64,000 nucleotides of DNA from Escherichia coli. GTDB lineage: Bacteria; Pseudomonadota; Gammaproteobacteria; Enterobacterales; Enterobacteriaceae. Positions 17,815 to 64,000 of the stretch are shown in pieces. The notes under the pieces are model-generated. The model was not told where the DNA came from and made no database searches. It worked only from the letters and a program-made list of their open reading frames with translations. The stretch's first letter is position 1; every line of letters starts with the position of its first letter. The stretch lies in the NCBI RefSeq assembly GCF_001677475.2, contig NZ_CP015229.1. One strand, written 5' to 3'. The position numbers were made by a program, and so were the translations under genes.

Positions 17815-17843
17815 TACACATCCTTATGCAGTTAAATGGCGTC

Positions 17844-19129: not shown

Positions 19130-19484
19130 TTACATTATCCTTGAGATTGCAGCAAATATGCTTACTTTGACAGTACTAAGGCACTGCCATCACTCCAGTG
19201 AATTTTAAATTCCTCAGGAAAAAATATAATATTAAAGCACGAAACGTTAAACACCTTATTTTTACTTAAATATGTTTTTAGGCATACTTAATTGATTCGT
19301 ATTGCGTATGATTGGTGGTGAAGTTTGTGAGGATTGCTGGGGGGGTGTACAATCATATTGATGATTTAAATGTGTGCTGTTGTATAAATATCTTTGGGCA
19401 ATCAAAAAGAGGCCAGTGAACAGATAAATTTGAACATAGAAGCTAAAATAATTTACTGTATTTCTTTGTTTATTGGGGAAGTGA

Positions 19485-47915: not shown

Positions 47916-48962
47916 TTAACGTCCTGCTTTCAGCTTCTGATAATACTCTTCATAAATGCTGCTGGCTGCGCCAACGTCATTCTGCCATTCACCATTTTTA
48001 ATGGTTTCAGCATCCGGGTAGAGCGTTTTATCGTTCGCCACTTCCGGGCTTAACAGCTTACGCGCCGCAAGGTTTGGCGTTGGATAACCGATAGTTTCGG
48101 CAACCTGTTTTGCCACATCCGGGCGCAGCAGGAAGTTGATCAGTTTCAGCGCGCCTTCTTTGTTTTTGGCATTCGCCGGAATTGCCAGGCTGTCCATCCA
48201 GAAAATGCCGCCTTCTTTCGGCCACACGACGTCAATTGGTGTACCCGCCTGGCGTGCAACGAAAGCAGAACCGTTCCAGATCATGCCGAGGTTAACTTCG
48301 CCTTCCATGTACGGGTTAGCCGGGTTATCGGAGTTAAACGCTGCGACGTTTGGCATCAGTTTTTTCAGCTCGTTATATGCAGCTTCAATCTCTTTCGGAT
48401 CGGTGGTGTTACCGGAATAGCCCAGCTTACGCAGCGCCATCTGGAACACTTCACGGGCATCGTCGGTCAGCAGCAGGCTGCCTTTGTACTCAGGCTTCCA
48501 CAGATCGGCCCAGCTGGTAACGGATTTCGGATCCACCGCATCACCGTTAACGCCAATCGCCGTCGCACCCCAGATATACGGAATGGAGTAGTCGTTATTC
48601 GGGTCAAAAGGCTTGTTGAGCATGTCTGGATCGAGATTGCTGAAGTTCGTTAACTTCGACTTGTCGATCTTCTGGATCATCCCTTCTTTACGCATTTTAT
48701 CGACGTAATAGGTTGAAGGAACCACCAGGTCATAGGCACCGTCTTTGTACGTTTTCAGCTTGGCATACATGGTTTCGTTCGACTCGTAAGTCGAATAGAT
48801 AACCTTAATACCGGTTTCTTTGGTGAACTGTTCAAGCAGTCCTGGCGGCACGTACTCGGTCCAGTTGTAGAAATACAGCGTGTTGTTGTCATCGGCGTGA
48901 GCGGCGCTCATGCCCAGTGCCAGAGCACCCGCCGCGAGCAGGTGGCGTGACCATTTTTTCAT
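47916..48962 (-). CDS. potD: spermidine/putrescine ABC transporter periplasmic binding protein
   Basis: 348 aa with signal peptide. Confidence 0.95.
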   Translation of the reverse strand: MKKWSRHLLAAGALALGMSAAHADDNNTLYFYNWTEYVPPGLLEQFTKETGIKVIYSTYESNETMYAKLKTYKDGAYDLVVPSTYYVDKMRKEGMIQKIDKSKLTNFSNLDPDMLNKPFDPNNDYSIPYIWGATAIGVNGDAVDPKSVTSWADLWKPEYKGSLLLTDDAREVFQMALRKLGYSGNTTDPKEIEAAYNELKKLMPNVAAFNSDNPANPYMEGEVNLGMIWNGSAFVARQAGTPIDVVWPKEGGIFWMDSLAIPANAKNKEGALKLINFLLRPDVAKQVAETIGYPTPNLAARKLLSPEVANDKTLYPDAETIKNGEWQNDVGAASSIYEEYYQKLKAGR

Positions 48963-49753
48963 TTAACGTCCCCTGTGTTACCTTTCGTTTTATCACGAGC
49001 AATAAGCTGGCTGGCAATAACCATCACCAGCGACAGCACCAGTAATATGGTTGCCAGCGCGTTAACTTCCGGCGATACGCCGACTTTGACCATCGAATAA
49101 ATTTTTAACGGCAGAATTTCATAACTTGGTCCGGTGACGAACGAAGAAACTACCACATCGTCCATCGACAGGGTAAAGCTTAACACCCAGCCCGCCGCTA
49201 CCGCTGGCATTGCCAGTGGCAGAATGATTTTTCGCAGAATGGTAAATTCGCTGGCACCGAGATCTTTCGCCGCTTCCAGCATTCGCACGTCAAAACCTTT
49301 CAGGCGCGAATACACTGTCACCACCACAAATGGCAGGCAGAAGGTGATATGCGAGAACAGCAGCGACCAGAAGCCAAGCTGAATACCCAGCAGCATAAAC
49401 AGCACCAGCAGCGAAATCGCCATCACGATATCTGGTGACATCATCACTACAAACAGCATTCCGCTAACGAACGGCTTACCACGAAAGCGATAACGGTACA
49501 GTGCAACTGCCGTCAGTGAACCGATAAGCGTAGCAAACGTCGCCGAAAACACCGCCATTGTTAGTGAATGCTGCGCTGCCTGTAACAGGCTGTCGTTGTT
49601 CATCAGCAGGCTATACCATTTGGTGGTAAAACCCTGCCAGTTGATGCCAAAGCGCGAGCTGTTAAAGGAGTTCACAATCAAAATAATGATTGGGATATAC
49701 AGGTACGCGTAGATAGCGGTCATAAAACCGCCGCGAAGCAGTCGACCGATCAT
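48959..49753 (-). CDS. potC: spermidine/putrescine ABC transporter permease
   Basis: 264 aa, six-TM permease with ABC EAA-loop region. Confidence 0.95.
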   Translation of the reverse strand: MIGRLLRGGFMTAIYAYLYIPIIILIVNSFNSSRFGINWQGFTTKWYSLLMNNDSLLQAAQHSLTMAVFSATFATLIGSLTAVALYRYRFRGKPFVSGMLFVVMMSPDIVMAISLLVLFMLLGIQLGFWSLLFSHITFCLPFVVVTVYSRLKGFDVRMLEAAKDLGASEFTILRKIILPLAMPAVAAGWVLSFTLSMDDVVVSSFVTGPSYEILPLKIYSMVKVGVSPEVNALATILLVLSLVMVIASQLIARDKTKGNTGDVK

Positions 49754-49788
49754 TCGAGTTCCACCTTCTTATTCATAAGGCGGGACAC
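49750..49788 (-). other. potB: potB 3'-terminal codons (…SRLMNKKVELE-stop) retained next to potC; probable prophage att core / junction
   Basis: Minus-strand frame upstream of potC reads …KVSRLMNKKVELE with TGA overlapping the potC ATG, matching the remembered PotB C-terminus; the frame closes about 40 codons upstream with non-PotB sequence. Confidence 0.55.
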
Positions 49789-49919
49789 TTTCAGGATTTT
49801 GAATTTATTCAATTTTTTCCTTTCTCCAAAATCTCTCCAAAACGTTTCCCCAAAACTAGGCCACGCATTTTACAACACTTTTTTCCTGAGATGGTGACGG
49901 ATATTCCATATGGTGTTTG

Positions 49920-51038
49920 TCAAATAACCAACTTAACCCATTCCTGACCTCGAGTATCGTTATAGCGATCGGTGGTTGCCTGGACTTTATGTCCTAGTAA
50001 TGTTTTTGTATCGATACCCTGTGCACGGTACAGCCGTTCTGATAGAGAGCGTTGTTCATGAAATGTTGGCGGAGTTTTTCCTGCTGGTGGAATTATCCCA
50101 GCCAGATCCCGTGCTTTGGCAAAGTAGTCGCTCAGGTTGTCTTTACTCATCGACTTCGGTTGTTTCTGGTGCCGACTATGGATTAGATATGGACTTAATA
50201 TTCTGTCTCGGCACCCATCAATAACTTCTTTTAACGTTATCCCAATGGCATCACAGCGTAGTGTAAGCGGTAACGCCAGACGCATTCCGGTTTTTCCTTG
50301 GGTGATATGCAAGTGTTCGTTCCACACATCTGAAAAACGCATGTGGCAAATGTCATCACGGCGCTGACCAGTAACAATCGCAAGAAGCATTGCGTTACGG
50401 ATAAAGTGTTTTTCAGGCGTTGCGTTGTAAATTTTTTGCCAGTCTTCCAGGGTGAGTCTGGCTCTGGTTACTTTAGGGATTGGTTTACGGGTAGCCTCCG
50501 GAGGATTCCATCCAGGAGGAACTTCCCCTGCATGCTGTGCTTCTTTATAAATATCAAGCCATAATCCGCGATTTACTCTCGCTGTGCTGACCATGTCTTT
50601 ATCCAGCCACTCATCCAGTATTAATGCAAAGTCTCTTACTTCCAGTTCTTTCAATGGGTGGTTTCCCAGACGGGAAACCAGGAATGCAGCCATTCGCGCT
50701 TTTTCTTTGTGGGTTGTAGCTGCAATATCTCCATTTTTCAGGCGCGCGTCCTGTATTTTCAGATATCGATCAACCCATGCCTTTAATCTGATACCCCGAC
50801 GTTTTGTTGCTGATGGACTTTCATCAATTTTGCGCATGAAATATTCAGCTTCTGCTGCAGCTATTCGCTGATTGGCTGTGGAAGCGATTTTTTCTGCCTT
50901 ACCTTTGTCTGTTCCGAGTCCGTGAAATTTTCCAGTCACAGGATTTTTATACTGGTAGTAAACTCTGCCAGTTCTGCGATCAAACTTTTCGTAAAGACCG
51001 GCTACGTCAGTGCTGTTTTTTCGTGGCCTCGGTGACAT
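49920..51038 (-). CDS. int: lambda-family tyrosine integrase
   Basis: 372 aa; C-terminal catalytic region HEQRSLSERLY…LLGHKVQATTDRYNDTRGQEW resembling lambda Int. Confidence 0.93.
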   Translation of the reverse strand: MSPRPRKNSTDVAGLYEKFDRRTGRVYYQYKNPVTGKFHGLGTDKGKAEKIASTANQRIAAAEAEYFMRKIDESPSATKRRGIRLKAWVDRYLKIQDARLKNGDIAATTHKEKARMAAFLVSRLGNHPLKELEVRDFALILDEWLDKDMVSTARVNRGLWLDIYKEAQHAGEVPPGWNPPEATRKPIPKVTRARLTLEDWQKIYNATPEKHFIRNAMLLAIVTGQRRDDICHMRFSDVWNEHLHITQGKTGMRLALPLTLRCDAIGITLKEVIDGCRDRILSPYLIHSRHQKQPKSMSKDNLSDYFAKARDLAGIIPPAGKTPPTFHEQRSLSERLYRAQGIDTKTLLGHKVQATTDRYNDTRGQEWVKLVI

Positions 51039-51285
51039 GAGTTAAAATCTCCTTCAGTGCATCATCATCGCCAGTATGAATTTCCGGCGCAATTCCCGTT
51101 TCACCAGGCCCAACAAATACTGCTCGGCGATCTATCAGCCAACGCCCACGAATTTTTTGTGGTCTTGGAACGATGTATCCTAGTTTTCCGTATTTCACCA
51201 GGGTAGTGTTTGTTATTGGGAGACTGAACCGTTTTGGTTTCCACTCGTCGAGCGTTATCAGGTACTGTTCGCTCATGGCTATCAC
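51007..51285 (-). CDS. xis: excisionase (Xis-like)
   Basis: Small basic ORF overlapping int start; LITLDEW…VFVGP pattern resembling lambda Xis; start may be at MSEQYL (51276). Confidence 0.7.
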   Translation of the reverse strand: MIAMSEQYLITLDEWKPKRFSLPITNTTLVKYGKLGYIVPRPQKIRGRWLIDRRAVFVGPGETGIAPEIHTGDDDALKEILTHVTEATKKQH

Positions 51286-51337
51286 TCCGGAACGCGCCAG
51301 TTGCAGAATATCAACGACAACTGGCGACGGTTGAACA

Positions 51338-53809
51338 TTAAAAATCAGCCTGATTCGGGATCAGTTTTTGCCAGATAGCTGAAACGTATTTTGCCTGGTG
51401 ACGAGCGTCATCAAGTGCATTATGGCGCTCACCTTCGAATGGGATAGCAGTTCTGGCATCGAAGTCTATGGTTTTCCCCAGCTCAACGATTGTGCGTACA
51501 TCGCGATCGTTGTAGTAACGCCACGGGCAGGGGATCCCCTGCCGTTCGTATGAACGGCGCAAAATCGTGTTGTCGAAGTTGGCTCCATTTCCCCAGACCT
51601 GAACAAAAAACTCACCGGAGTTTTCGGCGATAAATTCCCGCAATTGCAGTAGTGCATCATCTAACGGGATTTCATCGGTCATAATGGCAGACTGCGCTTC
51701 ACGTGATTGCTTCAGCCACCATTTAATGACGTCACGATCAATGACTCCGCCAGCAGTATCCAGATCGATGGTCTTGCTAAATTCCGGTCCCATATCACCG
51801 GTTTGCGGATCGAAAAATATTGCACCTATTGAGATAATCGGGGCATCAGGATTTTTTCCCATGGTTTCAAGGTCGATCATCAGATGAATCCCCGCTCTGC
51901 TGGTGGATGTGAGATTATGATGACTGTTCATCTTAATTAAGGGATCTGTCGCCTCGCCAGTTTTATTATCGCTGGCGTGATGCTGATTGCCGCCAGGGTT
52001 CTCCTTGTGTGGATGTTCAGCGCCTTCCATTTCCTCCGGATCATTTTCCTGAACTTCAGGCTGATTCTCTTCATCGAATATTTCCTGGTATGTTGCGTCA
52101 CCCATCACCGCGCCACAATCAGGGCAGTTGCCGCCACCGCTCTGACCGCAGGCTGTGCAGACTTTTTCCGGTTCCTGTTGCGCTACTGGCTCAGGTTGTT
52201 TCGTTTCTGGCTCGTTTTGTTGCGTATTTGGGCTGTTTTGTTCCGCTTTCTGGTCGTTCTGTTCCGTTTCTTGCTGGTTCTGGTTCACAGAATCGCGGGT
52301 TTCAATCCCCTTCACCCATTTCGGATCATTCGGATCGCTAATCCCTGCAACAAATTCACCACGTGATACTGCAAGCAGTTCATCGGCGTCATGCTGGCTG
52401 ATATTGGCTGCCTGCATAATTTTGTTTACTTCGTCAGCGGTAACTTTTACCGGCCCTGGTTGTGCGGTCGTGTCAGATGCACCAGTATTTTGTTGTGAAC
52501 CTGAGTATGTACCGTTTTTGCGGGCGAAATATTCTTCTTTCGTGATTTCAGTAGCCCCGGCAGCCAGTGCCTTATCCAGACCAGAAAGTTTGTTTGCGCG
52601 ACCGTATTTTTCGCCATCCTTGTCGGTGAAGAGGAAGTAGAATGGCCCCTCACGCTCTACAGATGGTTCGACTTCCACTTTGCATTCGGTTTTTTCGTTG
52701 TCCGGAATTGCCGTTTCCACTGCATCAGTTTCTGGTACTGGCGACGAGAGAGTATCAGTTGCGCTCTGATTTCTTCCTTCATCTTCAAACACGCCCTTTG
52801 TAGTCAGGTATTCAGTAATGTATTTGTTCAGTGCCACAGGGTCTTTGTGAATGTCGATCGGACGTTCACGAACAAGGCCAAAAATAGTCTGGCGGTCGTA
52901 GCGAAGGGCATCAGGCTGTTTGCGCATTGATGCCGAGATACGCTTCCAGTCTTCGCGGTCGTTGTCGATAACTTCATTTTTTGCCCAGCGATGGATGCTG
53001 CCATCAATGTTTCCGACATCCACATCACCAGGCCAGAGAGCGTAGGCCAGTTCGTCATCCAGTGTTTTCCATGTCTGCTTGTATTCGCGATGAGTGGCAG
53101 CAATGACCGGGCTGATTTTTCCTGTTGAATTTTCAGTGTGCTGTTGATTGGCTCTGGCGCGGGCGAGATCAACAACAGACGTGTATTTTCCGGTTTCCTT
53201 GCGTTCACCTTCGCGACGTTTTTTCCAGATGCGCATCTCTGCCTGAATTTCGGGCCATTTGGCACCAGGCTTACATTTATGCTTAACCCACCCGATGGCA
53301 TGCAGCTTAAGCTCCGGATACATGGCGTTAACTTCTGGCATTTTCATCAACGCTTCAACGATATGTCCGTCGAATGTTGCCATGTCTTCCTGCAACAATT
53401 CCTGCGCGCTAATCACCATATCAACGGTGATGTTTTCACATGTACCGAACTTAACCAGGACCGCGTTCTGTACTTCAAGGGACAGCTTGTCAAAATTGAC
53501 GTTAATAGGATCGGATTCTGGTTCGACCGGAATAAAGGAAGCGGATTCCTCATCCCAGCGGTTTTCCTGCATATATTCGGTATCCCAGGAGTCGATAGCA
53601 GGGCGGGGCATGCCGGGTTTATCTTCGCAGACAAGAAATTTATAAGCGCAGTCCTGAGCAGCAGGATATTGCTCCAGGAATTGCCAGGTAAATTTGGCAC
53701 GGGCGCGGCGTTCATCACCGGCTTCAATGGCAGTGGCTACAGCAACTGCGCCCTCTTCTTTTATTGCCTGTTCGTCCGGAATGGCGGCGCAAATAAAGAC
53801 TTTACTCAT
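51338..53809 (-). CDS. large phage protein with C-terminal DEDDh 3'-5' exonuclease domain (often annotated exonuclease VIII-like)
   Basis: 823 aa; C-terminal IHLMIDLETMG…GNGANFDNTIL…HNALDDARH (DnaQ-like Exo I/II/III motifs); central CTACGQSGGGNCPDCG zinc ribbon; Q/E-rich linker. Confidence 0.8.
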   Translation of the reverse strand: MSKVFICAAIPDEQAIKEEGAVAVATAIEAGDERRARAKFTWQFLEQYPAAQDCAYKFLVCEDKPGMPRPAIDSWDTEYMQENRWDEESASFIPVEPESDPINVNFDKLSLEVQNAVLVKFGTCENITVDMVISAQELLQEDMATFDGHIVEALMKMPEVNAMYPELKLHAIGWVKHKCKPGAKWPEIQAEMRIWKKRREGERKETGKYTSVVDLARARANQQHTENSTGKISPVIAATHREYKQTWKTLDDELAYALWPGDVDVGNIDGSIHRWAKNEVIDNDREDWKRISASMRKQPDALRYDRQTIFGLVRERPIDIHKDPVALNKYITEYLTTKGVFEDEGRNQSATDTLSSPVPETDAVETAIPDNEKTECKVEVEPSVEREGPFYFLFTDKDGEKYGRANKLSGLDKALAAGATEITKEEYFARKNGTYSGSQQNTGASDTTAQPGPVKVTADEVNKIMQAANISQHDADELLAVSRGEFVAGISDPNDPKWVKGIETRDSVNQNQQETEQNDQKAEQNSPNTQQNEPETKQPEPVAQQEPEKVCTACGQSGGGNCPDCGAVMGDATYQEIFDEENQPEVQENDPEEMEGAEHPHKENPGGNQHHASDNKTGEATDPLIKMNSHHNLTSTSRAGIHLMIDLETMGKNPDAPIISIGAIFFDPQTGDMGPEFSKTIDLDTAGGVIDRDVIKWWLKQSREAQSAIMTDEIPLDDALLQLREFIAENSGEFFVQVWGNGANFDNTILRRSYERQGIPCPWRYYNDRDVRTIVELGKTIDFDARTAIPFEGERHNALDDARHQAKYVSAIWQKLIPNQADF

Positions 53810-53902
53810 TTTGTTTTAACCTCATTACAGATTTAAGGGTGAACAAATCCCTGCCATTGCTGGCATATAAAAATGAAACCGGATATTAATTACGGTGCTG
53901 TT

Positions 53903-54094
53903 TTAAAGTCCTGCCGGTATTTCGTTATTATTAGTGTGAGTAGTTTTATCTACCGGATAACAGTTACCGGGAATTTTTTGTTCTGCTGCTGCAGCCATGC
54001 ATTCTTTCATTGAACCGTATAAGCCAGTCACCAGCTCAAGAGATTCGCCGGAAACAAGATAAACTGTCAGAACGAGTGCAAATGTTGTATTCAT
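53903..54094 (-). CDS. small membrane-anchored protein (kil-position), unknown function
   Basis: 63 aa with N-terminal hydrophobic helix; start overlaps upstream gene stop (ATGA). Confidence 0.55.
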   Translation of the reverse strand: MNTTFALVLTVYLVSGESLELVTGLYGSMKECMAAAAEQKIPGNCYPVDKTTHTNNNEIPAGL

Positions 54095-54279
54095 TGTTTA
54101 TATCCTTTTTGCAGCAGGTCCAGACGAGCCAGCATTGAAGGAATGCATACTTCATTTAACAGGTCCTGCTCGAGTTTTCTCTGCTTAATGGCGTCTTCAA
54201 TAAATGTTTTGTCTCCAGTGATAACGCCAATTTCGAAACGAAGTTCAGACGTGCTGGCATTACATGATAACTTTTCCAT
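54091..54279 (-). CDS. small hypothetical protein (kil-position)
   Basis: 62 aa from MEKLSCNASTSEL with GAGGA SD 9 nt upstream; the track's 97-aa version lacks an RBS and overlaps an inverted repeat. Confidence 0.55.
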   Translation of the reverse strand: MEKLSCNASTSELRFEIGVITGDKTFIEDAIKQRKLEQDLLNEVCIPSMLARLDLLQKGYKQ

Positions 54280-54296
54280 TATCGCGTCCTCAACAA

Positions 54297-54444
54297 TGAA
54301 TTTTGTGATGCGGTGCCTGGTGCCTCCAGGTGACGTTAACCAGTTAACAATTAACGCAGGATACAGAGAATCCACCCATAACACTGTTTTTGGTTTTTAC
54401 TGTTCCGCGTGCGCTGAGCCGCATTCACCGCATCACAAAATTCA
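54297..54444. repeat. perfect 19-bp inverted repeat pair (tgaattttgtgatgcggtg / caccgcatcacaaaattca) flanking a 110-bp palindrome-rich spacer
   Basis: Arms at 54297-54315 and 54426-54444 checked base by base; spacer contains cctggtgcctccagg and gttaaccagttaac palindromes. Confidence 0.85.
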
Positions 54445-54856
54445 CTTTTAAAAAAGGGCGGCAGAGCAGTCACGGAGTAAAACTGATACCGCCAAATGTC
54501 ACCAGAATATTGATAACAGAGGGCGTTGTAGCGGGGTTGTCACTTAAGCGTATGGTCAACCTGACAACCCGGTGTCCTCAACGGGGAAAGGCGTCCCTCC
54601 CACCCCCGCCATACTTACCGCCGCGCCATTTCGCGGGTCGCCACAACCGGAAGCGCACGGTCGAATTAAATTTAACGACACCGTGCAGTGAGACGAACTT
54701 CGCCGTGCGCTTTCGTGTTGTGTGCCTGCTTTTAACCACGTCAGGCGAGGTGGTTTCCGTCATTCCCCAACGACAGGAAATCTGTATAATCTGGGTATCC
54801 CCAACGATCCAAGGAAATCATATGACAGAGCAAAGAGCACAAGCAGGTGATGGTGT

Positions 54857-55303
54857 ATGGACCGGGATGATATTCTTGACAGAATTTTTTATGGCTATTT
54901 TCTTGAGCAACTGTTTTCTGTAGCGACTGGTCGTCTCGATAAACTTCTCTCAGTAGTGAGTATTATCCTCGGTTCATCTGTCATTGGCGGATTCATTCCG
55001 GAAATTTCTGGCGTTTTTATTGTTGTGATCGCAACCGTCCAAACGATTTATGGATTCGGACAAAAGTCAGGTAATACCATGAGAAAATCCGCAGAATATT
55101 TGCAGCTTTTTGATGATGCAGAAAAATATTCTGATTCGGAATTGAAAATTCAGTTAAAAACTCTGGAAAAAACAGATGATCATATTTGGTCATCACTTAA
55201 AGATATTGCGATCTTAAAAACACAGATCAAAATAGGCGTCTCCATCGAACAACAAGAGAAGTTGCCCACAAAATCCAAATTGATGCGATTTCTTTGTGGT
55301 TAG
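54857..55303 (+). CDS. 2-TM membrane protein on opposite strand at the Rac sieB position; candidate superinfection-exclusion / abortive-infection effector
   Basis: 148 aa, SD AGGTGA 6 nt upstream; two adjacent hydrophobic helices (LSVVSIILGSSVIGGFIP / ISGVFIVVIATVQTIYGF) then charged C-terminal tail; convergent with flanking minus-strand genes. Confidence 0.65.
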   Translation: MDRDDILDRIFYGYFLEQLFSVATGRLDKLLSVVSIILGSSVIGGFIPEISGVFIVVIATVQTIYGFGQKSGNTMRKSAEYLQLFDDAEKYSDSELKIQLKTLEKTDDHIWSSLKDIAILKTQIKIGVSIEQQEKLPTKSKLMRFLCG

Positions 55304-55392
55304 GAATATCCAGATTGTTAAAGAGCATGCCGGAGGTTTATCCGTGTCCGGCGCACGCACTTCATCTGCGGAGAACTACTTGAGCTCATTGG

Positions 55393-55608
55393 TCAGTAGT
55401 TTTCAATCACTCGCGAAACGTTTAATGCCGCGCTTTTTGCCAGAGTGGTAATATCCTGCTCCGCTGACACCAGTTCTTTAGAGAGGCGCTCTTTGTAGTC
55501 AGCGGCCTGCTTCAGGTCATTAATGGCGCGTATCTTTCCGCACATCCATTCGTAAATTTCATCCTCGGTATAGTCTGGTGCGATGATGACGGGTTCTCGT
55601 TTCTGCAT
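55393..55608 (-). CDS. hypothetical protein
   Basis: 71-aa ORF MQKREPVIIAPDYTEDEIYEWM…; hairpin gccggag…tccggc between it and the convergent 2-TM gene. Confidence 0.5.
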   Translation of the reverse strand: MQKREPVIIAPDYTEDEIYEWMCGKIRAINDLKQAADYKERLSKELVSAEQDITTLAKSAALNVSRVIENY

Positions 55609-55637
55609 ACTGATTCCTCGCGGTGCCGCTTCGCTTA

Positions 55638-55766
55638 TCAGCCGTTAGATTTTGCCGAACTGGAAAGCGCCTGTTTAAACTCACTGAAGCTGAGAGCTTC
55701 TTCGCCTTCGGCAAGGTCTTCGAAGTATTCTTCGTAAGCCTTTTCCATGATTGCGTCGAAATCCAT
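55638..55766 (-). CDS. small acidic hypothetical protein (42 aa), ydaF-position
   Basis: Hand translation MDFDAIMEKAYEEYFEDLAEGEEALSFSEFKQALSSSAKSNG; starts 2 nt after stop of upstream gene; not in track (<60 aa). Confidence 0.5.
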   Translation of the reverse strand: MDFDAIMEKAYEEYFEDLAEGEEALSFSEFKQALSSSAKSNG

Positions 55767-55767
55767 A

Positions 55768-56010
55768 TCACTCACCTGAATTTCTTTCCAGCCAGCGACG
55801 AGCGCCAGTTTCGGTTTTAAACGTTTTACTTTTGGTATACGTCATCGCGGTGAATGTGCCGTCCTGGTTGGGAAACACGCCGTACACCAGAGATTCGTTG
55901 TTGCCAAGATCGATAGTATCCATGTTGACCTCATTTCCCCTTAACGCTGGGGTAGCGGAACTAAAAACCTGCTGCGCTGTTATACAAAGTGTTCCCGCCG
56001 TCATGTTCAT
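55768..56010 (-). CDS. small hypothetical protein, ydaG-position
   Basis: 80-aa track ORF; real start may be the internal Met (MDTIDLGNNESL…). Confidence 0.45.
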   Translation of the reverse strand: MNMTAGTLCITAQQVFSSATPALRGNEVNMDTIDLGNNESLVYGVFPNQDGTFTAMTYTKSKTFKTETGARRWLERNSGE

Positions 56011-56126
56011 ACGCCTCGGGCTGGCTACTTAATCCCTGACCACTACCGGGTAACTCTAGGTATTGCCCTGTATTGTGTGGGACGGGATGGGTTGGTATGG
56101 GAAAACTATAGGAAATGCCTAATTGC

Positions 56127-56147
56127 TTGTCAATAGGCTATGCCTAA
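56127..56147. promoter_or_regulatory. operator-like site, downstream copy of 21-bp inverted repeat flanking repressor gene
   Basis: ttgtcaataggctatgcctaa is the exact reverse complement of 56772-56792; additional tgcctaat half-sites at 56114-56124 and 56160-56170. Confidence 0.6.
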
Positions 56148-56241
56148 TGATTTGGGTGCGACCTAATAGGTGATGGTTTGTGGGAGAGGTAGTAGGAGTT
56201 AACTAACGGGAACTAGGAATTTCCCGTCGGACCATATAAGT

Positions 56242-56718
56242 TTAAGTTCCTGTCTTGGTGATGTTCTGGCTTTTCCGTTTTGATTCTTGATTTTTCAGAT
56301 AGTTAGCTACCTTCATTTCCATTGCGGCAATGTAGGCGCGAACGTCATGATCAACCCAACTAGGCTCCGTAGCATTTCCAGATAAGAGGAAAGCCACAAT
56401 TGCTCTTTTTTCATCAGAGGCGGCTTGATAAAGGCTGTTTATGTCTAAAAGTTCACTTTTTGTATCTGAAGTGGATGGGGTTGGTATGGGGTATTCGTTA
56501 AGCCCCCAATGCTCTGGACCAACCACATCAGAAAAGAAACGCCATAGTTCTGGAAGTTTGTCTTTACTTATCGAACCTTTCTTAATCCAGTCATGGATTG
56601 ATGGTGGTTGGACTTTGAAATGACGTGCGATTTCCGCCTTTGATTTGACGGCTCCTGATGCAATTTTTTTGTTAATGGCCTGCTCTATCGCTCGGCCTAA
56701 GTCTTTACCACTAAGCAT
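56242..56718 (-). CDS. prophage repressor, RacR-like (HTH, no S24 peptidase domain)
   Basis: 158 aa with N-terminal HTH (KAEIARHFKVQPPSIHDWIKKG); divergent from Cro-like gene; same length and position as Rac RacR. Confidence 0.75.
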   Translation of the reverse strand: MLSGKDLGRAIEQAINKKIASGAVKSKAEIARHFKVQPPSIHDWIKKGSISKDKLPELWRFFSDVVGPEHWGLNEYPIPTPSTSDTKSELLDINSLYQAASDEKRAIVAFLLSGNATEPSWVDHDVRAYIAAMEMKVANYLKNQESKRKSQNITKTGT

Positions 56719-56771
56719 TGCTTAATAGTCTCCTATGCGCATCGCGTTAGGCAATACCTACTCTCGAAGCG

Positions 56772-56792
56772 TTAGGCATAGCCTATTGACAA
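56772..56792. promoter_or_regulatory. operator-like site in divergent repressor/cro promoter region
   Basis: ttaggcatagcctattgacaa plus neighbouring ttaggca and attaggctaagcctaat near-palindromes between repressor and cro-like genes. Confidence 0.6.
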
Positions 56793-56842
56793 TCACATTA
56801 GGCTAAGCCTAATATTATTGTGTGTTTTTTGGAGTTCATTCG

Positions 56843-57166
56843 ATGAAAAAAGATAACTATTCATTCAAACGAGCTTGTGCTGTTGTCGGTGGGCAATCAG
56901 CAATGGCTAGGCTTTTAGGTGTATCTCCTCCAAGCGTAAATCAATGGATCAAAGGTGTACGTCAGTTGCCTGCTGAGAGATGTCCTGCGATTGAACGAGC
57001 AACAAAAGGTGGTGTCCTGTGTGAAGAACTTCGTCCTGATGTTGATTGGACATACTTACGACGCTCGTCATGTTATTCGCAGAATATGTCGATGAAGCAA
57101 CCAAATGACGAAAACGATCATACCCGAAGCATCAAGAGGCAAATGATTCATGAAAATCAAACATGA
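56843..57166 (+). CDS. Cro-like HTH regulator (YdaS family)
   Basis: 107 aa from ATG with GGAG SD; HTH ARLLGVSPPSVNQWIKGVRQLP; divergent from repressor. Confidence 0.75.
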   Translation: MKKDNYSFKRACAVVGGQSAMARLLGVSPPSVNQWIKGVRQLPAERCPAIERATKGGVLCEELRPDVDWTYLRRSSCYSQNMSMKQPNDENDHTRSIKRQMIHENQT

Positions 57167-57575
57167 GCATATCCGCATGGCGATGAATGCCTGGGCATAC
57201 CCTGATGGTGAGAAAGTTCCTGCAGCTGAAATAGCCCGGACTTATTTCGAACTGGGAATGACGTTCCCGGAACTGTACGACGACAGCCATCCGGAAGCCC
57301 TGGCCCGTAATACCCAGAAAATTTTCCGTTGGCTGGATAAAGACACCCCTGATGCTGTTGAAAAAATGCAGGCTCTGTTACCGGCGATCGAAAAGGCGAT
57401 GCCGCCTTTGCTGGTGGCCCGTATGCGCAGCCACAGTTCTGAGTATTACCGTGAGATTGTCGAACGGAGGGATCGGTTGGTGAAAGATGTCGACGATTTT
57501 GTTGCGTCAGCGGTTGTTTTGTATGACCAGATGAATCGCGGCGGCCCGGCAGGAAATGCCGTGGTGATGCACTAA
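57150..57575 (+). CDS. YdaT-like (CII-like) regulatory protein
   Basis: 141-aa ORF immediately after the Cro-like gene with overlapping start, as ydaS-ydaT in Rac. Confidence 0.65.
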   Translation: MKIKHEHIRMAMNAWAYPDGEKVPAAEIARTYFELGMTFPELYDDSHPEALARNTQKIFRWLDKDTPDAVEKMQALLPAIEKAMPPLLVARMRSHSSEYYREIVERRDRLVKDVDDFVASAVVLYDQMNRGGPAGNAVVMH

Positions 57576-57582
57576 CAGCACG

Positions 57583-58566
57583 GTGTTCGGGGGTTTTATG
57601 AGCAGCAAGCTTCATGGTCTTGTCTGGGAAGGATGCGCCTTCACCGGCATGATCTTATCCCGGGTGGCAGTGATGGCCCGTCTTGCAGACTACAGCAATG
57701 ACGAGGGCGTGTCATGGCCTGCTATTGAAACTATCCGGCGTCAGATCGGTGCAAGAAGTGAATCCACAGTGAAATCGGCTATTGCAGAACTGGCGAAAGA
57801 GGGCTGGCTGACGAAGGAAGAGCGTAAGGTCGGTGGGCGTAATGTAAGCAATATCTATCGGCTTAATGTGGAAAAACTCGAAGCAGCAGCTGCGGCGGCG
57901 CGTGAGTCATATAAACCGAAAAGAAAAATTAGCCCGGCAAAAAATGACCCGTTAACAGTTGACCCGTCAAATATTGACCCCTCAACGGTTGACCCGTCAA
58001 ATTTTGATGGATCAACTGTTGATAAAAAACTGCCGATTAGGGGGACGATGATTGACCCCGATCAGTCAGTATTAAAACCTGATCCGTCAGATGAAAGATC
58101 TTCTTGTCCTGACGTTTCACTGCCGGACAAAAAACAATCATCACCAGTTGAGCGATTTCTGGAGAAACACCCGGATGCGCATACCTGGAATGTGCAGAAG
58201 CGACAGTGGGGTACCCGTGAGGATGTCGCCTGTGCGCAGTGGATTTGGGGACGGGTTGTTGCGTTGTATGAACAGGCCGCCAGTGATGATGGTGAGGTAT
58301 CACGCCCCAGAGAACCTAACTGGACGACCTGGGCGAATGATGTGCGCATGATGCGTATGCTGGATGGACGTAGTCACCGGCAGATTTGTGAAATGTTTGG
58401 GCGTGTCCAGCGGGATTCGTTCTGGGTAAAAAACATCATGAGTCCGGCAAAACTCCGGGAAAAATGGGATGAGCTGGTTATTCGTCTGGGGCGTTCGCCT
58501 GTACAGCGTTGCGTGAATCACATTTCTGAACCGGATACCGAAATTCCGCCGGGGTTCAGGGGGTAA
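57583..58566 (+). CDS. phage replication initiation protein (O-like, winged-HTH N-terminus)
   Basis: About 322-327 aa (ATG at 57598 has GGGGG SD); N-terminal HTH region; internal iteron array encoding repetitive linker PLTVDPSNIDPSTVDPSNFDGSTVD. Confidence 0.75.
   Translation: MFGGFMSSKLHGLVWEGCAFTGMILSRVAVMARLADYSNDEGVSWPAIETIRRQIGARSESTVKSAIAELAKEGWLTKEERKVGGRNVSNIYRLNVEKLEAAAAAARESYKPKRKISPAKNDPLTVDPSNIDPSTVDPSNFDGSTVDKKLPIRGTMIDPDQSVLKPDPSDERSSCPDVSLPDKKQSSPVERFLEKHPDAHTWNVQKRQWGTREDVACAQWIWGRVVALYEQAASDDGEVSRPREPNWTTWANDVRMMRMLDGRSHRQICEMFGRVQRDSFWVKNIMSPAKLREKWDELVIRLGRSPVQRCVNHISEPDTEIPPGFRG
57945..58090. repeat. iteron array (putative prophage origin of replication) inside replication gene
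   Basis: Direct repeats tgacccgttaac, ttgacccgtcaa (x2), ttgacccctcaa, ttgaccccgatc, tgatccgtcaga at 14-16 bp spacing. Confidence 0.7.
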
Positions 58567-58608
58567 GTGCTGATTTGAGGTCATGAAGTTATTTTCTCAG
58601 GAGAGTTT

Positions 58609-59010
58609 ATGGGGGCTATTTATACCGAAGAACAGCGGGAAAGGTTACAGCGTCACATCGTTGACCTTGTACGTAAAAACGGGCGTATGACAATGCCACA
58701 ACTGGCATCGGCAACATATGCTTCACATGATTCCATTCGCCGGTACCTGAAGATGCTGGTGAGCCAGGGCGAAGTGTATGTTGTCAGCGGAAAAGGGGTA
58801 TTCCTTTCAGAGAGAGTTTACCGTGAATGGCTGGCAAGTTCGGCAAAAAAATCAAGGGTTATCCGCAAACCAGCACAAAAACAGGGTAAGGCCGGAGTAC
58901 AACCCTACGACCGGCACCAGAACGTAATTTGCCGGGAATGTCGTAACAGCGAATCAATGCAGCGGGTACTGGCTTTTTACAGGGGTGGATTTCAGGAGCT
59001 CGTATCGTGA
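58609..59010 (+). CDS. hypothetical DNA-binding protein (winged-helix-like N-terminus)
   Basis: 133-aa ORF, translationally coupled to next ORF. Confidence 0.5.
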   Translation: MGAIYTEEQRERLQRHIVDLVRKNGRMTMPQLASATYASHDSIRRYLKMLVSQGEVYVVSGKGVFLSERVYREWLASSAKKSRVIRKPAQKQGKAGVQPYDRHQNVICRECRNSESMQRVLAFYRGGFQELVS

Positions 59011-59315
59011 AAAAGTGGGTGCGTGCCGAGATACTGATTCTACGGCAGTGTGCGGGAACAATGACGGTGGAATGCATCGGGATGCTTATTGGTCGTAGTG
59101 AGGCTGCGGTCAGAACGAAAGCGCGGGAACTGGGTATTAGTATGATGTTACGGGGTGATTATCACCAGTCAGCAAAATATCCGCAGAGTGATATTGAGCT
59201 GGCGCGACAGCTGCATCAACGTGGCGTGTCCAGGAGAGAAATCGCCAGAAAATTTGGAATGCCGCTGCGCACAGTGAATAACTACGTTTATTTCGACAGG
59301 AGGGTGTCTGCGTGA
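59007..59315 (+). CDS. hypothetical protein with two HTH-like segments
   Basis: 102 aa; RSEAAVRTKARELGIS and VSRREIARKFGMPLRTV helix-turn-helix-like motifs. Confidence 0.5.
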   Translation: MKKWVRAEILILRQCAGTMTVECIGMLIGRSEAAVRTKARELGISMMLRGDYHQSAKYPQSDIELARQLHQRGVSRREIARKFGMPLRTVNNYVYFDRRVSA

Positions 59316-59557
59316 AAATCCTGTATCAGGATTACGGCCCGGTGGGACAGGTGGTTATCAGCAGTACTGTAATGGAGTTCCGGAAGCATAACCGTGTGGT
59401 GGATGCAGTGCTGTTAGCCTGTCCGGGGATATCGGCGAGCCGTGCAGGTGTGTTTTTTATGAAGACGAAGTTATATGGCAGTACAGCGTGGATAAAGAAG
59501 GCGTACCGGGTAGCGTTGCAGGAGGTAAACAGTGAGCGAATCGGCAACCATTCTTGA
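59312..59557 (+). CDS. hypothetical protein
   Basis: 81-aa ORF overlapping neighbours at both ends. Confidence 0.4.
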   Translation: MKILYQDYGPVGQVVISSTVMEFRKHNRVVDAVLLACPGISASRAGVFFMKTKLYGSTAWIKKAYRVALQEVNSERIGNHS

Positions 59558-60020
59558 TATGTCCTGTGGCAGTCGTATGTTCTGGTTCGATAAGAATGAC
59601 GACCGGGCGATATTTAGCGATATCAGAAAAGAAGAGCACACATTATGTGATGGACGACGCCTGATAATTAGCCCTGACCTGATAGCAGATTTTCGTGCAT
59701 TACCATTTGCAGACGCATCGTTTCCGGTTGTTGTATTCGACCCTCCGCATCTTGAGCGTGTTGGTGATAACGCCTGGATGGGAAAGAAATATGGACGGCT
59801 GAATAAAGATACCTGGCGTGATGATTTGCGGCAGGGATTTAAAGAAGCCTTTCGTGTGTTGTGGCCACACGGTGTTCTGATTTTTAAATGGAATGAAACG
59901 CAAATACCTGTCCGCCAGATATTGGCACTAACCGACGCGAAACCAATCATCAGCCAGCGCACCGGTAAGAACGATAAAACACATTGGATTATTTTTGTGA
60001 AGGAAGCGACCAGTGGGTAA
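59532..60020 (+). CDS. orphan DNA methyltransferase (amino-MTase, DPPH motif)
   Basis: 162 aa from GTG with GGAGG SD; motif I-like DMSCGSRMFW and motif IV VVVFDPPH; no adjacent restriction endonuclease gene. Confidence 0.7.
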   Translation: MSESATILDMSCGSRMFWFDKNDDRAIFSDIRKEEHTLCDGRRLIISPDLIADFRALPFADASFPVVVFDPPHLERVGDNAWMGKKYGRLNKDTWRDDLRQGFKEAFRVLWPHGVLIFKWNETQIPVRQILALTDAKPIISQRTGKNDKTHWIIFVKEATSG

Positions 60021-60267
60021 ATCAAAATGCCAGGTTTATGGCAACAAGATAGAACCGTGTACGGCACTGGCAAACTCCCTTGAGCATGATGCTGAATACA
60101 CGACGCGAAAAGGTCTGCTGATATACGAAATCTGGAATGAGAGTTTAACTCGCGGCCCTGATTTGGTGATGTTGCGATCCGGTGAATTTTCTAAATCACC
60201 AGTTCGGGTTTCATTTTTCCCGTTCTGCGGTGAAAGTCTGAAAACGTGGGAGAACAGAAATGAATGA
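60013..60267 (+). CDS. hypothetical small Cys-containing protein
   Basis: 84-aa ORF from GTG, overlapping MTase stop. Confidence 0.45.
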   Translation: MGKSKCQVYGNKIEPCTALANSLEHDAEYTTRKGLLIYEIWNESLTRGPDLVMLRSGEFSKSPVRVSFFPFCGESLKTWENRNE

Positions 60268-60571
60268 AATTAGAGAAATACCAGTAGAACGTGATGAATA
60301 TGGCTGCTGGACACATCCAGAATATGAAAAATTCTGTGACGGTCGGGAATATATTTCAACGGAAGAGTTTAACGCCTGGATGAAGGAAAATAATCTTCAG
60401 TGGACTATTTGCAGCATGGATGAAGATTATTTAAATCCGGTTGCAGATGACCCCGATATTTCCGCCTGGGAACCGGAACGACCAGAGGGCGAAGGCTGGT
60501 TTATTAGCTCCATTCATGATACTGAAGATGGTCCGGTTTGTGTCTGGTTGCGAAACAAGGTGATGGCATAG
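60260..60571 (+). CDS. hypothetical protein
   Basis: 103-aa acidic ORF, overlapping starts/stops in array. Confidence 0.5.
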   Translation: MNEIREIPVERDEYGCWTHPEYEKFCDGREYISTEEFNAWMKENNLQWTICSMDEDYLNPVADDPDISAWEPERPEGEGWFISSIHDTEDGPVCVWLRNKVMA

Positions 60572-60874
60572 ATGAGAATAGAAAAAGCGAAAGCACAGCT
60601 CAGGATAATGCTTGCTGGTCCGGCTGCGAGTTATATGACACATTCACCAGCCATAAAGAAGGTTCTTGATGAACTGGAAGCCAAAGACAAGCGCATTGCA
60701 GAACTGGAGGCGAGGGAAATCCAGTTACCTGCTGGCTTCGACCTTCGATATGGACACCCGATAAATGCTGATGAGCGACATGTGATGATACCTAAAGAAA
60801 ATGGCAACTGGATTTATCGGACTGACTTAGAGCACGTACTACGTGTTGCAGGGATTCGAATTAAAGGAGACTAA
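60572..60874 (+). CDS. hypothetical protein
   Basis: 100-aa ORF starting at stop of previous gene. Confidence 0.5.
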   Translation: MRIEKAKAQLRIMLAGPAASYMTHSPAIKKVLDELEAKDKRIAELEAREIQLPAGFDLRYGHPINADERHVMIPKENGNWIYRTDLEHVLRVAGIRIKGD

Positions 60875-60875
60875 C

Positions 60876-61232
60876 GTGGAAATAAAACCAGAAGATGAGT
60901 TAAGTAATATTGTTTTATTTCCGGTAAAAGAGGATGACCCACGTAATCAGGTTAATTTTCTTTATGAGCCATCGGAAAGACCATATTGTCATCACGCCTC
61001 TGTCCGGGTTGACGAAAAAGAGCGTCAGGTCCGCTGTAAAATCTGCGGTGCAGTTGTGGAGCTATTTGACTGGATGCTCTCTGTGGCGAAAAGAGAAACC
61101 AGACTGGCAGATGATGTAAGGATCTTGCGCCAGGAGGAACGGGAAAGGCGGAGAAATATAGAAAAGCTAATTCAGATTGAGCGTAACGTGAAAGCGCGGA
61201 TACGCAGGGTGACAAAATCCAGAACTGAATAA
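60876..61232 (+). CDS. hypothetical zinc-ribbon protein
   Basis: 118 aa from GTG with AAGGAG SD; CHH…CKICG motif; basic C-terminus. Confidence 0.5.
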   Translation: MEIKPEDELSNIVLFPVKEDDPRNQVNFLYEPSERPYCHHASVRVDEKERQVRCKICGAVVELFDWMLSVAKRETRLADDVRILRQEERERRRNIEKLIQIERNVKARIRRVTKSRTE

Positions 61233-61280
61233 TTAAATTTAGCTCTGTTAAAAATTTAATCCTTAACCGGAGGTATATCA

Positions 61281-61493
61281 ATGTCAAACGCACAGAAAGT
61301 TATTAACGCTGAAAAATATAACGAGTGGGTGAAAAAGTTCTCAGAGCAGATTTTTAAAATTACTGGCGACGAGAATGCGGCAAAAAATGAATTAGAGCCG
61401 TGGACACCTGAAGGTGTCGACCCAAATTATTGCTGGTGGGATGTTGATCCAGTTGATGCTGCAAATGAAGCTATGAGTTATCACAACGATTAA
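61281..61493 (+). CDS. hypothetical protein
   Basis: 70-aa ORF with GGAGG SD. Confidence 0.5.
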   Translation: MSNAQKVINAEKYNEWVKKFSEQIFKITGDENAAKNELEPWTPEGVDPNYCWWDVDPVDAANEAMSYHND

Positions 61494-61528
61494 TGTCAGG
61501 AGGCCGCCCGAAAGGGCGGTAATGAAAA

Positions 61529-62362
61529 GTGACTGAATTAACCAAAGAGCAATTAATCGAAGAAGCCAAATTAAAAATAGCGATTGCGAAATGCTACCCC
61601 AGTTCAGGGATGGCACGGGTAGAGGGCGAGTTATTCAAAATTGCACTGGCATCGCTGGAAGCAGAACCAATAGGTGCTTTCCACATTGTAGAACAGCAAG
61701 TTGACGGAACAAGTTACTATATCAAGGATGGGGAATGGCCTATTGATACTGGGATTATTGAAGTCTACGCCGCCTCACCGATGACGGTAGTGCTGAACGA
61801 TGTATCTGGACCTCTTGCTCTTGCTTACAAAGAGCTTACACCTGCGATTATGCGCAACCATATCGCTGTATTCGAACGATACGGAATAACCCCAAACGAT
61901 AGCATTACTACAATTCATGCGCTTCGAATTGCGCTGGATGGCATAGAGCGGAGCGACGCCATGCTTCATGGACGTCAGCCATGCCATCAAATTACCGCCT
62001 CAATGGCAAAAGCTATTGCGCTTAAACTTGGTGCCGAACTGAATAACGAAGAAGCAGAGATTTTCGCGGATGGGTATAACACCGCCATGCTTCATGCCGA
62101 AAACTTTCGGGAAAATAAGAATTCGTCAACCAATAATTTTCGGATAACCTCGGAAACGTCAACCAACTCTCCGGCAATCCCTGATGAGGTGTTGTCCGCA
62201 ATCCTGAAGGTCGCCAGGCTTCGTGCAGATTTCGATGCTTCTGAAGGTGACAGGCGAGGTATCGGTGGTTGTCTGGATGAGGCCGAGCAAGAACTTATCG
62301 TTACCATTAACAAATACGCCAGTCAGATCGCAGTAGAAGCGATACAGGGGGCGCACCAATGA
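61529..62362 (+). CDS. hypothetical phage protein (277 aa), function unknown
   Basis: Largest ORF of nin-like array, GTG start after hairpin ggccgcccgaaagggcgg; no recognisable catalytic motif. Confidence 0.6.
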   Translation: MTELTKEQLIEEAKLKIAIAKCYPSSGMARVEGELFKIALASLEAEPIGAFHIVEQQVDGTSYYIKDGEWPIDTGIIEVYAASPMTVVLNDVSGPLALAYKELTPAIMRNHIAVFERYGITPNDSITTIHALRIALDGIERSDAMLHGRQPCHQITASMAKAIALKLGAELNNEEAEIFADGYNTAMLHAENFRENKNSSTNNFRITSETSTNSPAIPDEVLSAILKVARLRADFDASEGDRRGIGGCLDEAEQELIVTINKYASQIAVEAIQGAHQ

Positions 62363-62471
62363 GCCGGCCCGATGCATTTGCAGGCGTTGCTATAGCTATT
62401 GCTTTTCCAGTATATGTTATTTGTCGGTGGGGGTAAAAACGTTCGCCGGAATTCACACCAAGGGAGGGAAT

Positions 62472-62576
62472 ATGTCGGATGATATTTCACTGGTAATGGA
62501 AGGCGCTCTGGCTGTTATTGCTGTTGTGGGTGTTTACTGCCTGGTTGTGTTTTTGATGGATCGCCTGGGGAACTGA
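62472..62576 (+). CDS. 34-aa single-TM hydrophobic peptide
   Basis: MSDDISLVMEGALAVIAVVGVYCLVVFLMDRLGN with strong SD AGGGAGGG 3-4 nt upstream; not in track (<60 aa). Confidence 0.5.
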   Translation: MSDDISLVMEGALAVIAVVGVYCLVVFLMDRLGN

Positions 62577-62820
62577 ATTCATTCCGTATGGGAATTCCCA
62601 TATCGGGCAAAAACGGTTTGCTGTAAAGCGAGAGTTAAGTAGAATTGCTGCGGGTGCTTGAGGCTATCTGCCTCGGGCATGCCGCCGTAAGGCAGACAGA
62701 GAAAAGCCCCAGTTAACATTACGCGTCCTGCAAGACGCTTAACATTAATCTGAGGCCATATCTATGACTTGCACACGTAGGTTAGCCTCTTACGTGCCGA
62801 AAGGCAAGGAGAAGCAGGCT

Positions 62821-62976
62821 ATGAAGCAGCAAAAGGCGATGTTAATCGCCCTGATCGTCATCTGTTTAACCGTTATAGTGACGGCACTGGTAACGAGGAA
62901 AGACCTCTGCGAGGTACGAATCCGAACCGGCCAGACGGAGGTCGCTGTCTTCACAGCTTACGAACCTGAGGAGTAA
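62821..62976 (+). CDS. hok: Hok/Gef-family type I toxin (HokD/RelF-like)
   Basis: 51 aa MKQQKAMLIALIVICLTVIVTALVTRKDLCEVRIRTGQTEVAVFTAYEPEE; AAGGAG SD; in-frame upstream ATG at 62764 gives a 70-aa mok-like extension. Confidence 0.85.
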   Translation: MKQQKAMLIALIVICLTVIVTALVTRKDLCEVRIRTGQTEVAVFTAYEPEE

Positions 62977-63014
62977 GAGACCTGGCGGGGGAGAAATCCC
63001 TCGCCACCTCTGAT

Positions 63015-63422
63015 GTGTCAGGCTTCCTCAACGCACCCGCACTTAACCCGCTTCGGCGGGTTTTGTTTTTTCTGTGCATTCTGGTTTACAATTCGCACGC
63101 CAGCCTGAACAACTGGCACCTGCTGCGCCAGCAGAGACAACCGATGGCGCACGATACCAAATTACACAATTCTGATGATTCTGCCGTTTTTGCCAGCAGG
63201 CACGGGCTGCGTTCTCACGCATTCAAATATGACTGGTATCAGCACGATCCCTGCACTGAAGAACAGGCCGAATGGCTGATTCATAACTACCGCAGACGTG
63301 GGTATGAGTTTAAGAAAGCCCTCAGTCTCGATTATCGTCACTGGATAATCTACGTCAGACTCCCTTATTCCGAACGCCCGCCGCGTCCATCCCGCACATT
63401 CCAGCAACGGATCTGGAGGTAA
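63015..63422 (+). CDS. hypothetical protein (Rem-position), start uncertain
   Basis: ORF after hok; likely start at ATG 63144 (92 aa). Confidence 0.45.
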   Translation: MSGFLNAPALNPLRRVLFFLCILVYNSHASLNNWHLLRQQRQPMAHDTKLHNSDDSAVFASRHGLRSHAFKYDWYQHDPCTEEQAEWLIHNYRRRGYEFKKALSLDYRHWIIYVRLPYSERPPRPSRTFQQRIWR

Positions 63423-63423
63423 C

Positions 63424-64000
63424 GTGCGGGTATTACTTCGACCTGTTCCGGTGCCGGAACTCGGGCTGGTGGTCCTTAAGCCGGGCCGTGAATCCATGCA
63501 GGTATTTCATAACCCTCGAGTGCTGGTGGAGCCGGAACCGAAAAGCATGCGCGGTCTGCCGTCCGGAGTTGTTCCTGCCGTTCGCCAGCCGCTGGCGGAA
63601 GATAAATCATTGCTGCCATTTTTCAGCGACGAACGGGTGATTCGTGCTGCCGGCGGCGCTGGTGCACTGTCTGACTGGCTCCTGCGTCATGTTAAATCCT
63701 GCCAGTGGCCTCATGGTGACTACCATCACAGTGAAACCGTCATACATCGTTACGGTACCGACGCGATGGTGTTGTGCTGGCACTGCGACAACCAGCTGCG
63801 TGACCAGACCTCAGAATCACTTGAGCAACTTGCTCAACAAAACCTGACAGCATGGATGATTGACGTCATCCGTCACGCAATAAGCGGTGCGCAGGAGCGG
63901 GAATTATCGCTGGCTGAATTATCCTGGTGGGCTGTCTGCAATCAGGTGGCGGACGCACTACCGGAGGTAGTATTACGTCGTTCTCTGGGGTTACGTGCGG
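63424..64000 (+). CDS. hypothetical Cys/His-rich protein (possibly DUF968/YdfU-like), 3'-truncated by window end
   Basis: GTG start 1 nt after previous stop; CQWPHGDYHH…CWHCDNQ motif; open to window edge. Confidence 0.5.
   Translation, partial: MRVLLRPVPVPELGLVVLKPGRESMQVFHNPRVLVEPEPKSMRGLPSGVVPAVRQPLAEDKSLLPFFSDERVIRAAGGAGALSDWLLRHVKSCQWPHGDYHHSETVIHRYGTDAMVLCWHCDNQLRDQTSESLEQLAQQNLTAWMIDVIRHAISGAQERELSLAELSWWAVCNQVADALPEVVLRRSLGLRA

Follow-up and report, generated by a model that had tools for sequence, protein, structure and literature searches.

The spermidine/putrescine transporter operon potABCD appears to be split by a prophage in the Escherichia coli genome analyzed here, with potC and potD left on one side of the element and potA and nearly all of potB on the other. 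This reading of a 64,000-nucleotide stretch of contig NZ_CP015229.1 (assembly GCF_001677475.2), hereafter called the window, had been proposed in a preliminary description made from the sequence alone, and it is supported by an exact attL junction next to potC, by empty sites in other genomes and by the presence of potAB at the far prophage end in relatives. We consider it very probable that positions 49762–64000 belong to a Rac/lambda-like prophage with the "Sp6" type of attachment and form its left (attL-int-xis) end; potCD would then most likely be transcribed from the prophage side. The arrangement is already known and very common, and its structure adds nothing new.

An exact attL junction upstream of potC

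The features that define the junction all lie on the minus strand:

47916–48962, minus strand: potD, spermidine/putrescine-binding periplasmic protein, intact (NCBIfam NF007048, 791 bits; cut-off, 582)
48959–49753, minus strand: potC, ATP-binding cassette (ABC) transporter permease, intact (NCBIfam NF007047, 485 bits against a cut-off of 326)
49750–49775, minus strand: bacterial 3' end of potB (..NKKVELE and a TGA that overlaps the potC start codon), making up the B-side half of attL (base-for-base identity with K-12)
49762–49775, minus strand: common core TGAATAAGAAGGTG, in attL, attB, attR and attP (three-way alignment; present in the unintegrated attP)
49776–49919, minus strand: P'-type phage arm of attL, 144 bp from the int stop to the core (match to an attP-bearing IMG/VR contig)
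49821–49855, minus strand: three tandem TTTTGGAGAAA-like repeats with 11- and 13-bp spacing, putative arm-type Int-binding sites (repeat family D2)
49920–51038, minus strand: int, lambda-family tyrosine integrase of 372 amino acids, co-directional with potC (Pfam PF09003, PF00589)

Both potC and potD score above the curated NCBIfam equivalog cut-offs and encode proteins that are 100% identical to those of K-12 (265/265 residues for PotC and 349/349 for PotD), confirming that the two genes are intact. The 30 nucleotide differences that separate them from K-12, 25 of which fall in potD, are synonymous without exception (30/30, 0 non-synonymous). The native potC start codon is kept, as is an AAGGTGG motif resembling a Shine-Dalgarno (SD) sequence 7 nt upstream of the potC ATG.

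From potC to 49775 the window is K-12 base for base, and divergence begins at 49776. The frame upstream of potC reads ...KVSRLMNKKVELE and ends in a TGA that overlaps the potC ATG, an overlap that translation of the sequence confirms. The earlier account of this frame as roughly 12 PotB-like codons holds as a description, but about five of those codons are a phage mimic and only the last 26 nt are bacterial or core. Specifically, the first codons of the P' arm (SRLM) mimic the SRLL of PotB, and 9 of the first 20 phage bases agree with K-12; a 30-nt string of the frame occurs once in the window against 0 occurrences expected by chance. A tblastn search of the window with K-12 PotB and PotA as queries returned only a 13-residue remnant and paralogues (PotC, LolD); thus, the window lacks potA and most of potB, as the preliminary description had surmised, and in relatives both lie at the far end of a prophage of 43–48 kb. 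In K-12 potB does immediately precede potC, and an intact potB in that position is ruled out here by the divergence from 49776 and by the tblastn result.

The attL site was delimited by a three-way alignment of the window with the empty site of K-12 and the far prophage end of enterotoxigenic E. coli (ETEC) H10407, and this comparison with an empty site, which had been suggested as a check, placed the 14-bp core at 49762–49775. The core TGAATAAGAAGGTG covers the last potB codons (N-K-K-V) and part of the SD-like AAGGTGG. The junction is exact, consisting of potC-side host DNA, the 14-bp core and a phage arm as in the unintegrated attP. Apart from one A in an A-run, the P' arm is the same as in the attP-bearing IMG/VR contig and in the attL of H10407 and O157:H7 Sakai. 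Sites that match the TTTTGGAGAAA repeat with at most one mismatch occur three times in 49821–49855 and only once elsewhere in the whole 64 kb, and the far-end (P) arm of H10407 holds a perfect copy as well. In number and in position beside int the tandem repeats resemble the P'1–P'3 sites of lambda, and we regard them as putative arm-type sites.

A single base within the core may bear on where strand exchange took place. The attL core of Sakai and 08-00022 reads TGAATAAAAAGGTG, and the attR of the same strains carries a G there. One possibility is that the A is a host variant, silent since AAA and AAG are both Lys codons, and that G is the phage base. If the A is indeed the host base, this difference would set the right-hand limit of the crossover and exchange probably occurred within the 7-bp TGAATAA, and the crossover would be limited to TGAATAA if empty-site relatives of O157:H7 and of 08-00022 have AATAAAAAG in potB. 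Seven base pairs is the overlap length of lambda-type integrases.

The int open reading frame (ORF), located 166 bp upstream of potC, encodes both parts expected of a lambda-family integrase, namely an N-terminal arm-binding domain (Arm-DNA-bind_1, PF09003, residues 1–64, E=7e-21) and a C-terminal catalytic domain (Phage_integrase, PF00589, residues 194–363, E=3e-17). The protein aligns with solved structures of lambda Int (E=9e-54), and in the residue match to 1z1b the complete R-K-H-R-H-Y set is kept: R226, K249, H327, R330, H350 and Y359 align with what we take to be the catalytic positions R212, K235, H308, R311, H333 and Y342 of lambda Int. The assignment of ORF 49920–51038 as a tyrosine integrase is thereby upheld, and its product is identical to the Sakai Sp6 Int at 365 of 372 residues.

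The far prophage end, attP and the distribution of the site

In H10407, 08-00022 and Sakai, potC and potB/potA are parted by a lambdoid prophage of 43–48 kb, which in the Sakai RefSeq record is the feature "prophage Sp6; lambda-like phage" at 1541611–1590033, between potC and potB. The matching core anticipated at the far end is indeed found in the attR of all three strains. The window holds a single core copy, with no second copy of TGAATAAGAAGGTG found within its 64 kb, so that the far prophage end lies outside it and the state of potB is inferred from relatives. At attR the C-terminus of PotB reads ...NKKVSELDD in H10407, ...NKKVSEIGD in 08-00022 and ...NKKATEIDN in Sakai, each followed by a stop, in place of the native ...NKKVELE, and RefSeq annotates a full-length potB at this position in the relatives. 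Judged from these translations, the phage arm re-closes potB as a complete ORF rather than truncating it in 3/3 relatives, and we infer that potB is likewise complete, with a phage-coded tail, in the genome of the window.

The three P arms thus far described specify three substitute tails (VSELDD, VSEIGD and ATEIDN), each two residues longer than VELE and all acidic. The P arm also mimics the start of potC (GATGATTAA versus GAATGATCGG). The mimicry of the tail together with that of the potC start suggests that attP may have descended from the potB/potC junction of another host.

A composite attP, assembled from the window arm, the core and the H10407 far-end arm, was used to search IMG/VR and gave an exact match to one contig (2534681703_000014, 45,442 bp), which has the order int, three-repeat P' arm, core and P arm. 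On this uncultivated virus genome (UViG), which derives from an isolate genome project, attP lies 123–149 nt from one contig end; the contig is probably an excised or circular phage that was assembled separately. Two GenBank phages, ON470612 and ON470619, were considered as free phages with this integrase and rejected, as they still contain potC, potD and ycfZ and hence attL rather than attP. Both records (ON470612.1, vB_EcoS-640R1; ON470619.1, vB_EcoS-813R8) are filed as phage genomes yet carry ycfZ, ymfA, potD and potC, a gene content that identifies them as prophage excerpts with host flanks and not packaged genomes. All other integrases in the GenBank phage collection are less than 60% identical to Int, the best reaching 50%.

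Among 5,426 complete E. coli genomes, the potB-potC junction is uninterrupted in 3,800 (~70%), and this integrase adjoins potC in 1,600 (~30%), as counted by at least 80% coverage of a 2.2-kb query. The H10407 attR is shared by 963 genomes (at least 80% of 401 bp). Some 1,626 genomes lack the uninterrupted junction; beyond the 1,600 with int beside potC, ~26 remain, and these may harbor integrases disrupted by insertion sequence (IS) elements, as H3 does with an ISVsa5 copy inside int, or a different element at the site.

Transcription of potCD and rival explanations

The proposed course of events begins with a lambda-family Int that would recombine attP with the 14-bp core TGAATAAGAAGGTG in the last potB codons, just upstream of potC. 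As a result, potA and potB would end up 43–48 kb away at attR, where the phage arm would add a PotB tail of 5–6 residues and a stop, and potCD, severed from the potA promoter, would be transcribed from the prophage side. The likeliest sources of a potCD transcript would be read-through from the co-directional int or weak promoter activity within either the 3' end of int or the P' arm. Upon prophage induction the leftward early transcript would run into potCD, with the same geometry as gal "escape synthesis" from induced lambda; in both cases leftward transcripts would read into flanking host genes, with the read-through into potCD being a prediction.

No terminator-like sites were found on the minus strand from the int stop to the potC start, which is why read-through ranks among the likeliest sources. 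The int-to-potC transcript has a predicted stability that is ordinary (z=-0.08). A dependence of potCD on phage-derived transcription, as the preliminary description had envisaged, is therefore plausible insofar as it fits the orientation of int and the absent terminator. The junction also contains a 20-codon ORF on the minus strand (49750–49812) with a TTG start at 49812–49810 and the translation LNKFKILKVSRLMNKKVELE, which ends at the TGA overlapping the potC ATG and is preceded by GGAGAAAGGA within the arm-type repeats. This ORF could preserve translational coupling to potC, or could be due to chance. It would take a considerably more speculative step, and one to which we give little credence, to propose that the P' arm compensates for the operon split through an outward promoter and a leader ORF, with potC coupled to it and potCD placed under prophage control with a burst at induction; if so, spermidine uptake would itself be under prophage control.

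Two structural candidates were set aside. The phage sequence CCGCCUU can pair with the SD-like AAGGUGG of potC in a 7-bp hairpin (-7.6 kcal/mol), but the native K-12 junction folds similarly overall (-10.3 vs -12.0 kcal/mol) and no conclusion was drawn. A sib-/tI-like hairpin in the far-end P arm was likewise rejected as a general feature, as it was strong in Sakai Sp6 alone (z=-3.3), with no significant signal in UViG 2534681703_000014 or 08-00022.

Several observations weigh against the overall reading of an Sp6-type prophage that drives potCD. A consensus scan of 48900–51500 for sigma-70-like promoters returned 0 sites against 3.4 expected, and a looser scan yielded just three matches at 8 of 12 positions, including one at 49839–49812 in the P' arm; these matches are too weak, and accordingly no promoter is named. 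Most of the conservation of PotC and PotD dates from before the insertion and is no proof of later expression. The far prophage end lies outside the window, with the attR and potB of this genome predicted from relatives. Finally, the exact prophage is not present in any complete genome of the 5,426-genome collection, the best match to the prophage part being strain 08-00022 at 96.3% identity over 94% of the query.

The same promoter results bear on an alternative in which the prophage is integrated but potCD are effectively silent, such that spermidine uptake by PotABCD is lost and PotFGHI or biosynthesis compensates. The only known promoter of the K-12 pot operon lies upstream of potA, and potCD are separated from it; scanning from xis to potC turned up no sigma-70 consensus promoter; and lambda-type lysogens normally keep both leftward early transcription and CII-dependent transcription of int switched off. 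We nevertheless consider silence unlikely. The PotC and PotD proteins are fully conserved despite the 30 synonymous nucleotide differences, full potC and potD genes are annotated in the 30 best-matching lysogen genomes, and the insertion is found in ~30% of complete E. coli genomes. Moreover, potC (ECs1500) is among the genes significantly regulated by growth phase in Sakai, an Sp6 lysogen, which implies that its transcript was detected (PMC2241611), and the potABCD genes as a group were higher in rpoS mutants of O157:H7 EDL933 by microarray (PMC2907692), a strain whose potB/potC site was not checked. Full protein conservation, the regulation of potC in Sakai and the rpoS result in EDL933 are indirect signs that potCD are still in use. 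We found no published study on potCD transcription in lysogens of the Sp6-type site.

It is somewhat more credible, although still doubtful, that the element is a defective and non-excisable remnant, as Sakai Sp6 is held to be, in which case the operon split would be permanent. Only 14 kb of the element is visible, IS elements, gene truncations and effector cargo occur in relatives at the site (an exonuclease remnant and IS2 in Sp6; ISCro1 in H10407), and the prophage pool of O157:H7 is largely defective. Against this, the window shows undamaged ORFs for int (with its full catalytic set), xis, the 823-residue exonuclease, the repressor and the replication functions, and its attL arm is the same as in the unintegrated attP form. 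An active lysogeny switch of the Listeria comK type was rejected, as none of the relatives compared has an inactivated potB and neither potC nor potD is damaged. That the adjacency of int and potC is an assembly artefact or an ancestral arrangement can hardly be entertained: the junction recurs in 1,600 independently assembled complete genomes, the breakpoint is base-exact relative to K-12, and both the reciprocal junction and an unintegrated attP exist. By sequence comparison, the empty site, the occupied site, the far end and attP fit the Campbell model fully, and these four results exclude an artefact as well as an int gene belonging to a non-integrated remnant.

Related prophages and the remainder of the window

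Beyond int, the prophage part of the window contains the following features:

51007–51285, minus strand: xis, excisionase, overlapping the int start (PHROG 629, E=5e-26; annotated as excisionase in relatives)
51338–53809, minus strand: prophage exonuclease of 823 amino acids, partly RecE/exo VIII-like, intact (NCBIfam NF007259, partial and below cut-off; annotated as exonuclease in H10407 and 08-00022)
54456–54507, minus strand: DicF small RNA gene (Rfam RF00039, 77 bits; gathering score, 48)
56242–56718, minus strand: prophage repressor of RacR type (159/159 residues identical to 08-00022 RacR and likewise to ECs_1506, the "phage repressor" of Sakai Sp6)
56822–59010, plus strand: rightward early operon with a Cro/YdaS-like regulator, a YdaT/CII-like protein, an O-like replication initiator and a DUF977/Ren-like protein (PHROGs 35, 163, 391 and 142)
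59007–64000, plus strand: further early and accessory prophage genes, continuing past the window end (PHROG matches)
62652–62826, plus strand: sok antitoxin RNA (Rfam RF01794, 110.6 bits)

DicF and sok are both typical of Rac/Qin-type prophages, and hok is annotated at the position equivalent to the sok region in relatives.

The closest named counterpart, Sakai Sp6, shares the attachment site and orientation, an attL arm identical save for one core base and an identical RacR-type repressor. It differs from the window in having a 345-bp exonuclease remnant in place of the intact 823-residue exonuclease and in its P arm, which encodes the PotB tail ATEIDN, unlike the VSELDD and VSEIGD of H10407 and 08-00022; the early region of the window is closest to 08-00022 (96%). 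Sp6 also carries type III secretion system effectors, whereas the window shows only 14 kb of its element, with the late region lying beyond it. The potC or potB/potC locus has been named as the Sp6 site (PMC8190617), and the same insertion site has been reported for Shiga toxin 2 (Stx2)-converting and other prophages in O113:H21, O2:H25, O157:H7 and O104:H4 (prophage J), with potC or potB/potC given as the site of the O104:H4 prophage (PMC3486847) and listed in a review as an Stx phage insertion site (PMC8065619). Phages at the potC site are reported to have one highly homologous type of integrase (PMC9453080). The word "potC" is absent from the text of Steyert et al. 2012, and it is PMC8065619 and PMC9453080 that link the paper to potC. 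The 14 kb of prophage within the window shows no stx genes; stx would be expected in the late region beyond it.

Two better-studied systems place this organization in context. Integration of phage 21 and of e14 at icd replaces the 3' end of the target, with the phage arm carrying a look-alike of that end, and as at icd the interrupted gene stays a complete ORF at potB, as seen in the tails of the three relatives. At potB, however, three native codons are replaced by five (six in Sp6), and the insertion falls within an operon and parts downstream genes from their promoter, which is not so at icd. As in lambda, int adjoins attL and is transcribed toward the bacterial flank, with three tandem repeats in the int-proximal arm like P'1–P'3; in contrast, Int is only ~45% identical to lambda Int, and the core and arm sequences differ.

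Elsewhere in the window, a six-gene chaperone-usher fimbrial operon occupies 13144–19129 on the minus strand, between fabF (11844–13085) and pabC (19485–20294). It encodes a major subunit, a chaperone, an usher, a putative adhesin of 346 amino acids and two FimG-like minor subunits, all of which score below equivalog cut-offs, with no NCBIfam match for the putative adhesin. A megablast search with 13050–19500 found no match in any of the 5,426 complete E. coli genomes, and the backbone at 11000–34000 is covered to at most 71% by any of them, with a best identity of 98.7%. The operon is either a rare accessory locus or has a source outside mainstream E. coli.

For annotation, the value of these results is that the left prophage boundary can be marked at 49762–49776 and that the short "potB fragment" upstream of potC is to be read as a duplicate of the attachment site and not as a pseudogene. 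For the biology of the species, they mean that ~30% of complete E. coli genomes hold a prophage of 40–50 kb within a four-gene ABC transporter operon, with potCD still perfectly conserved.

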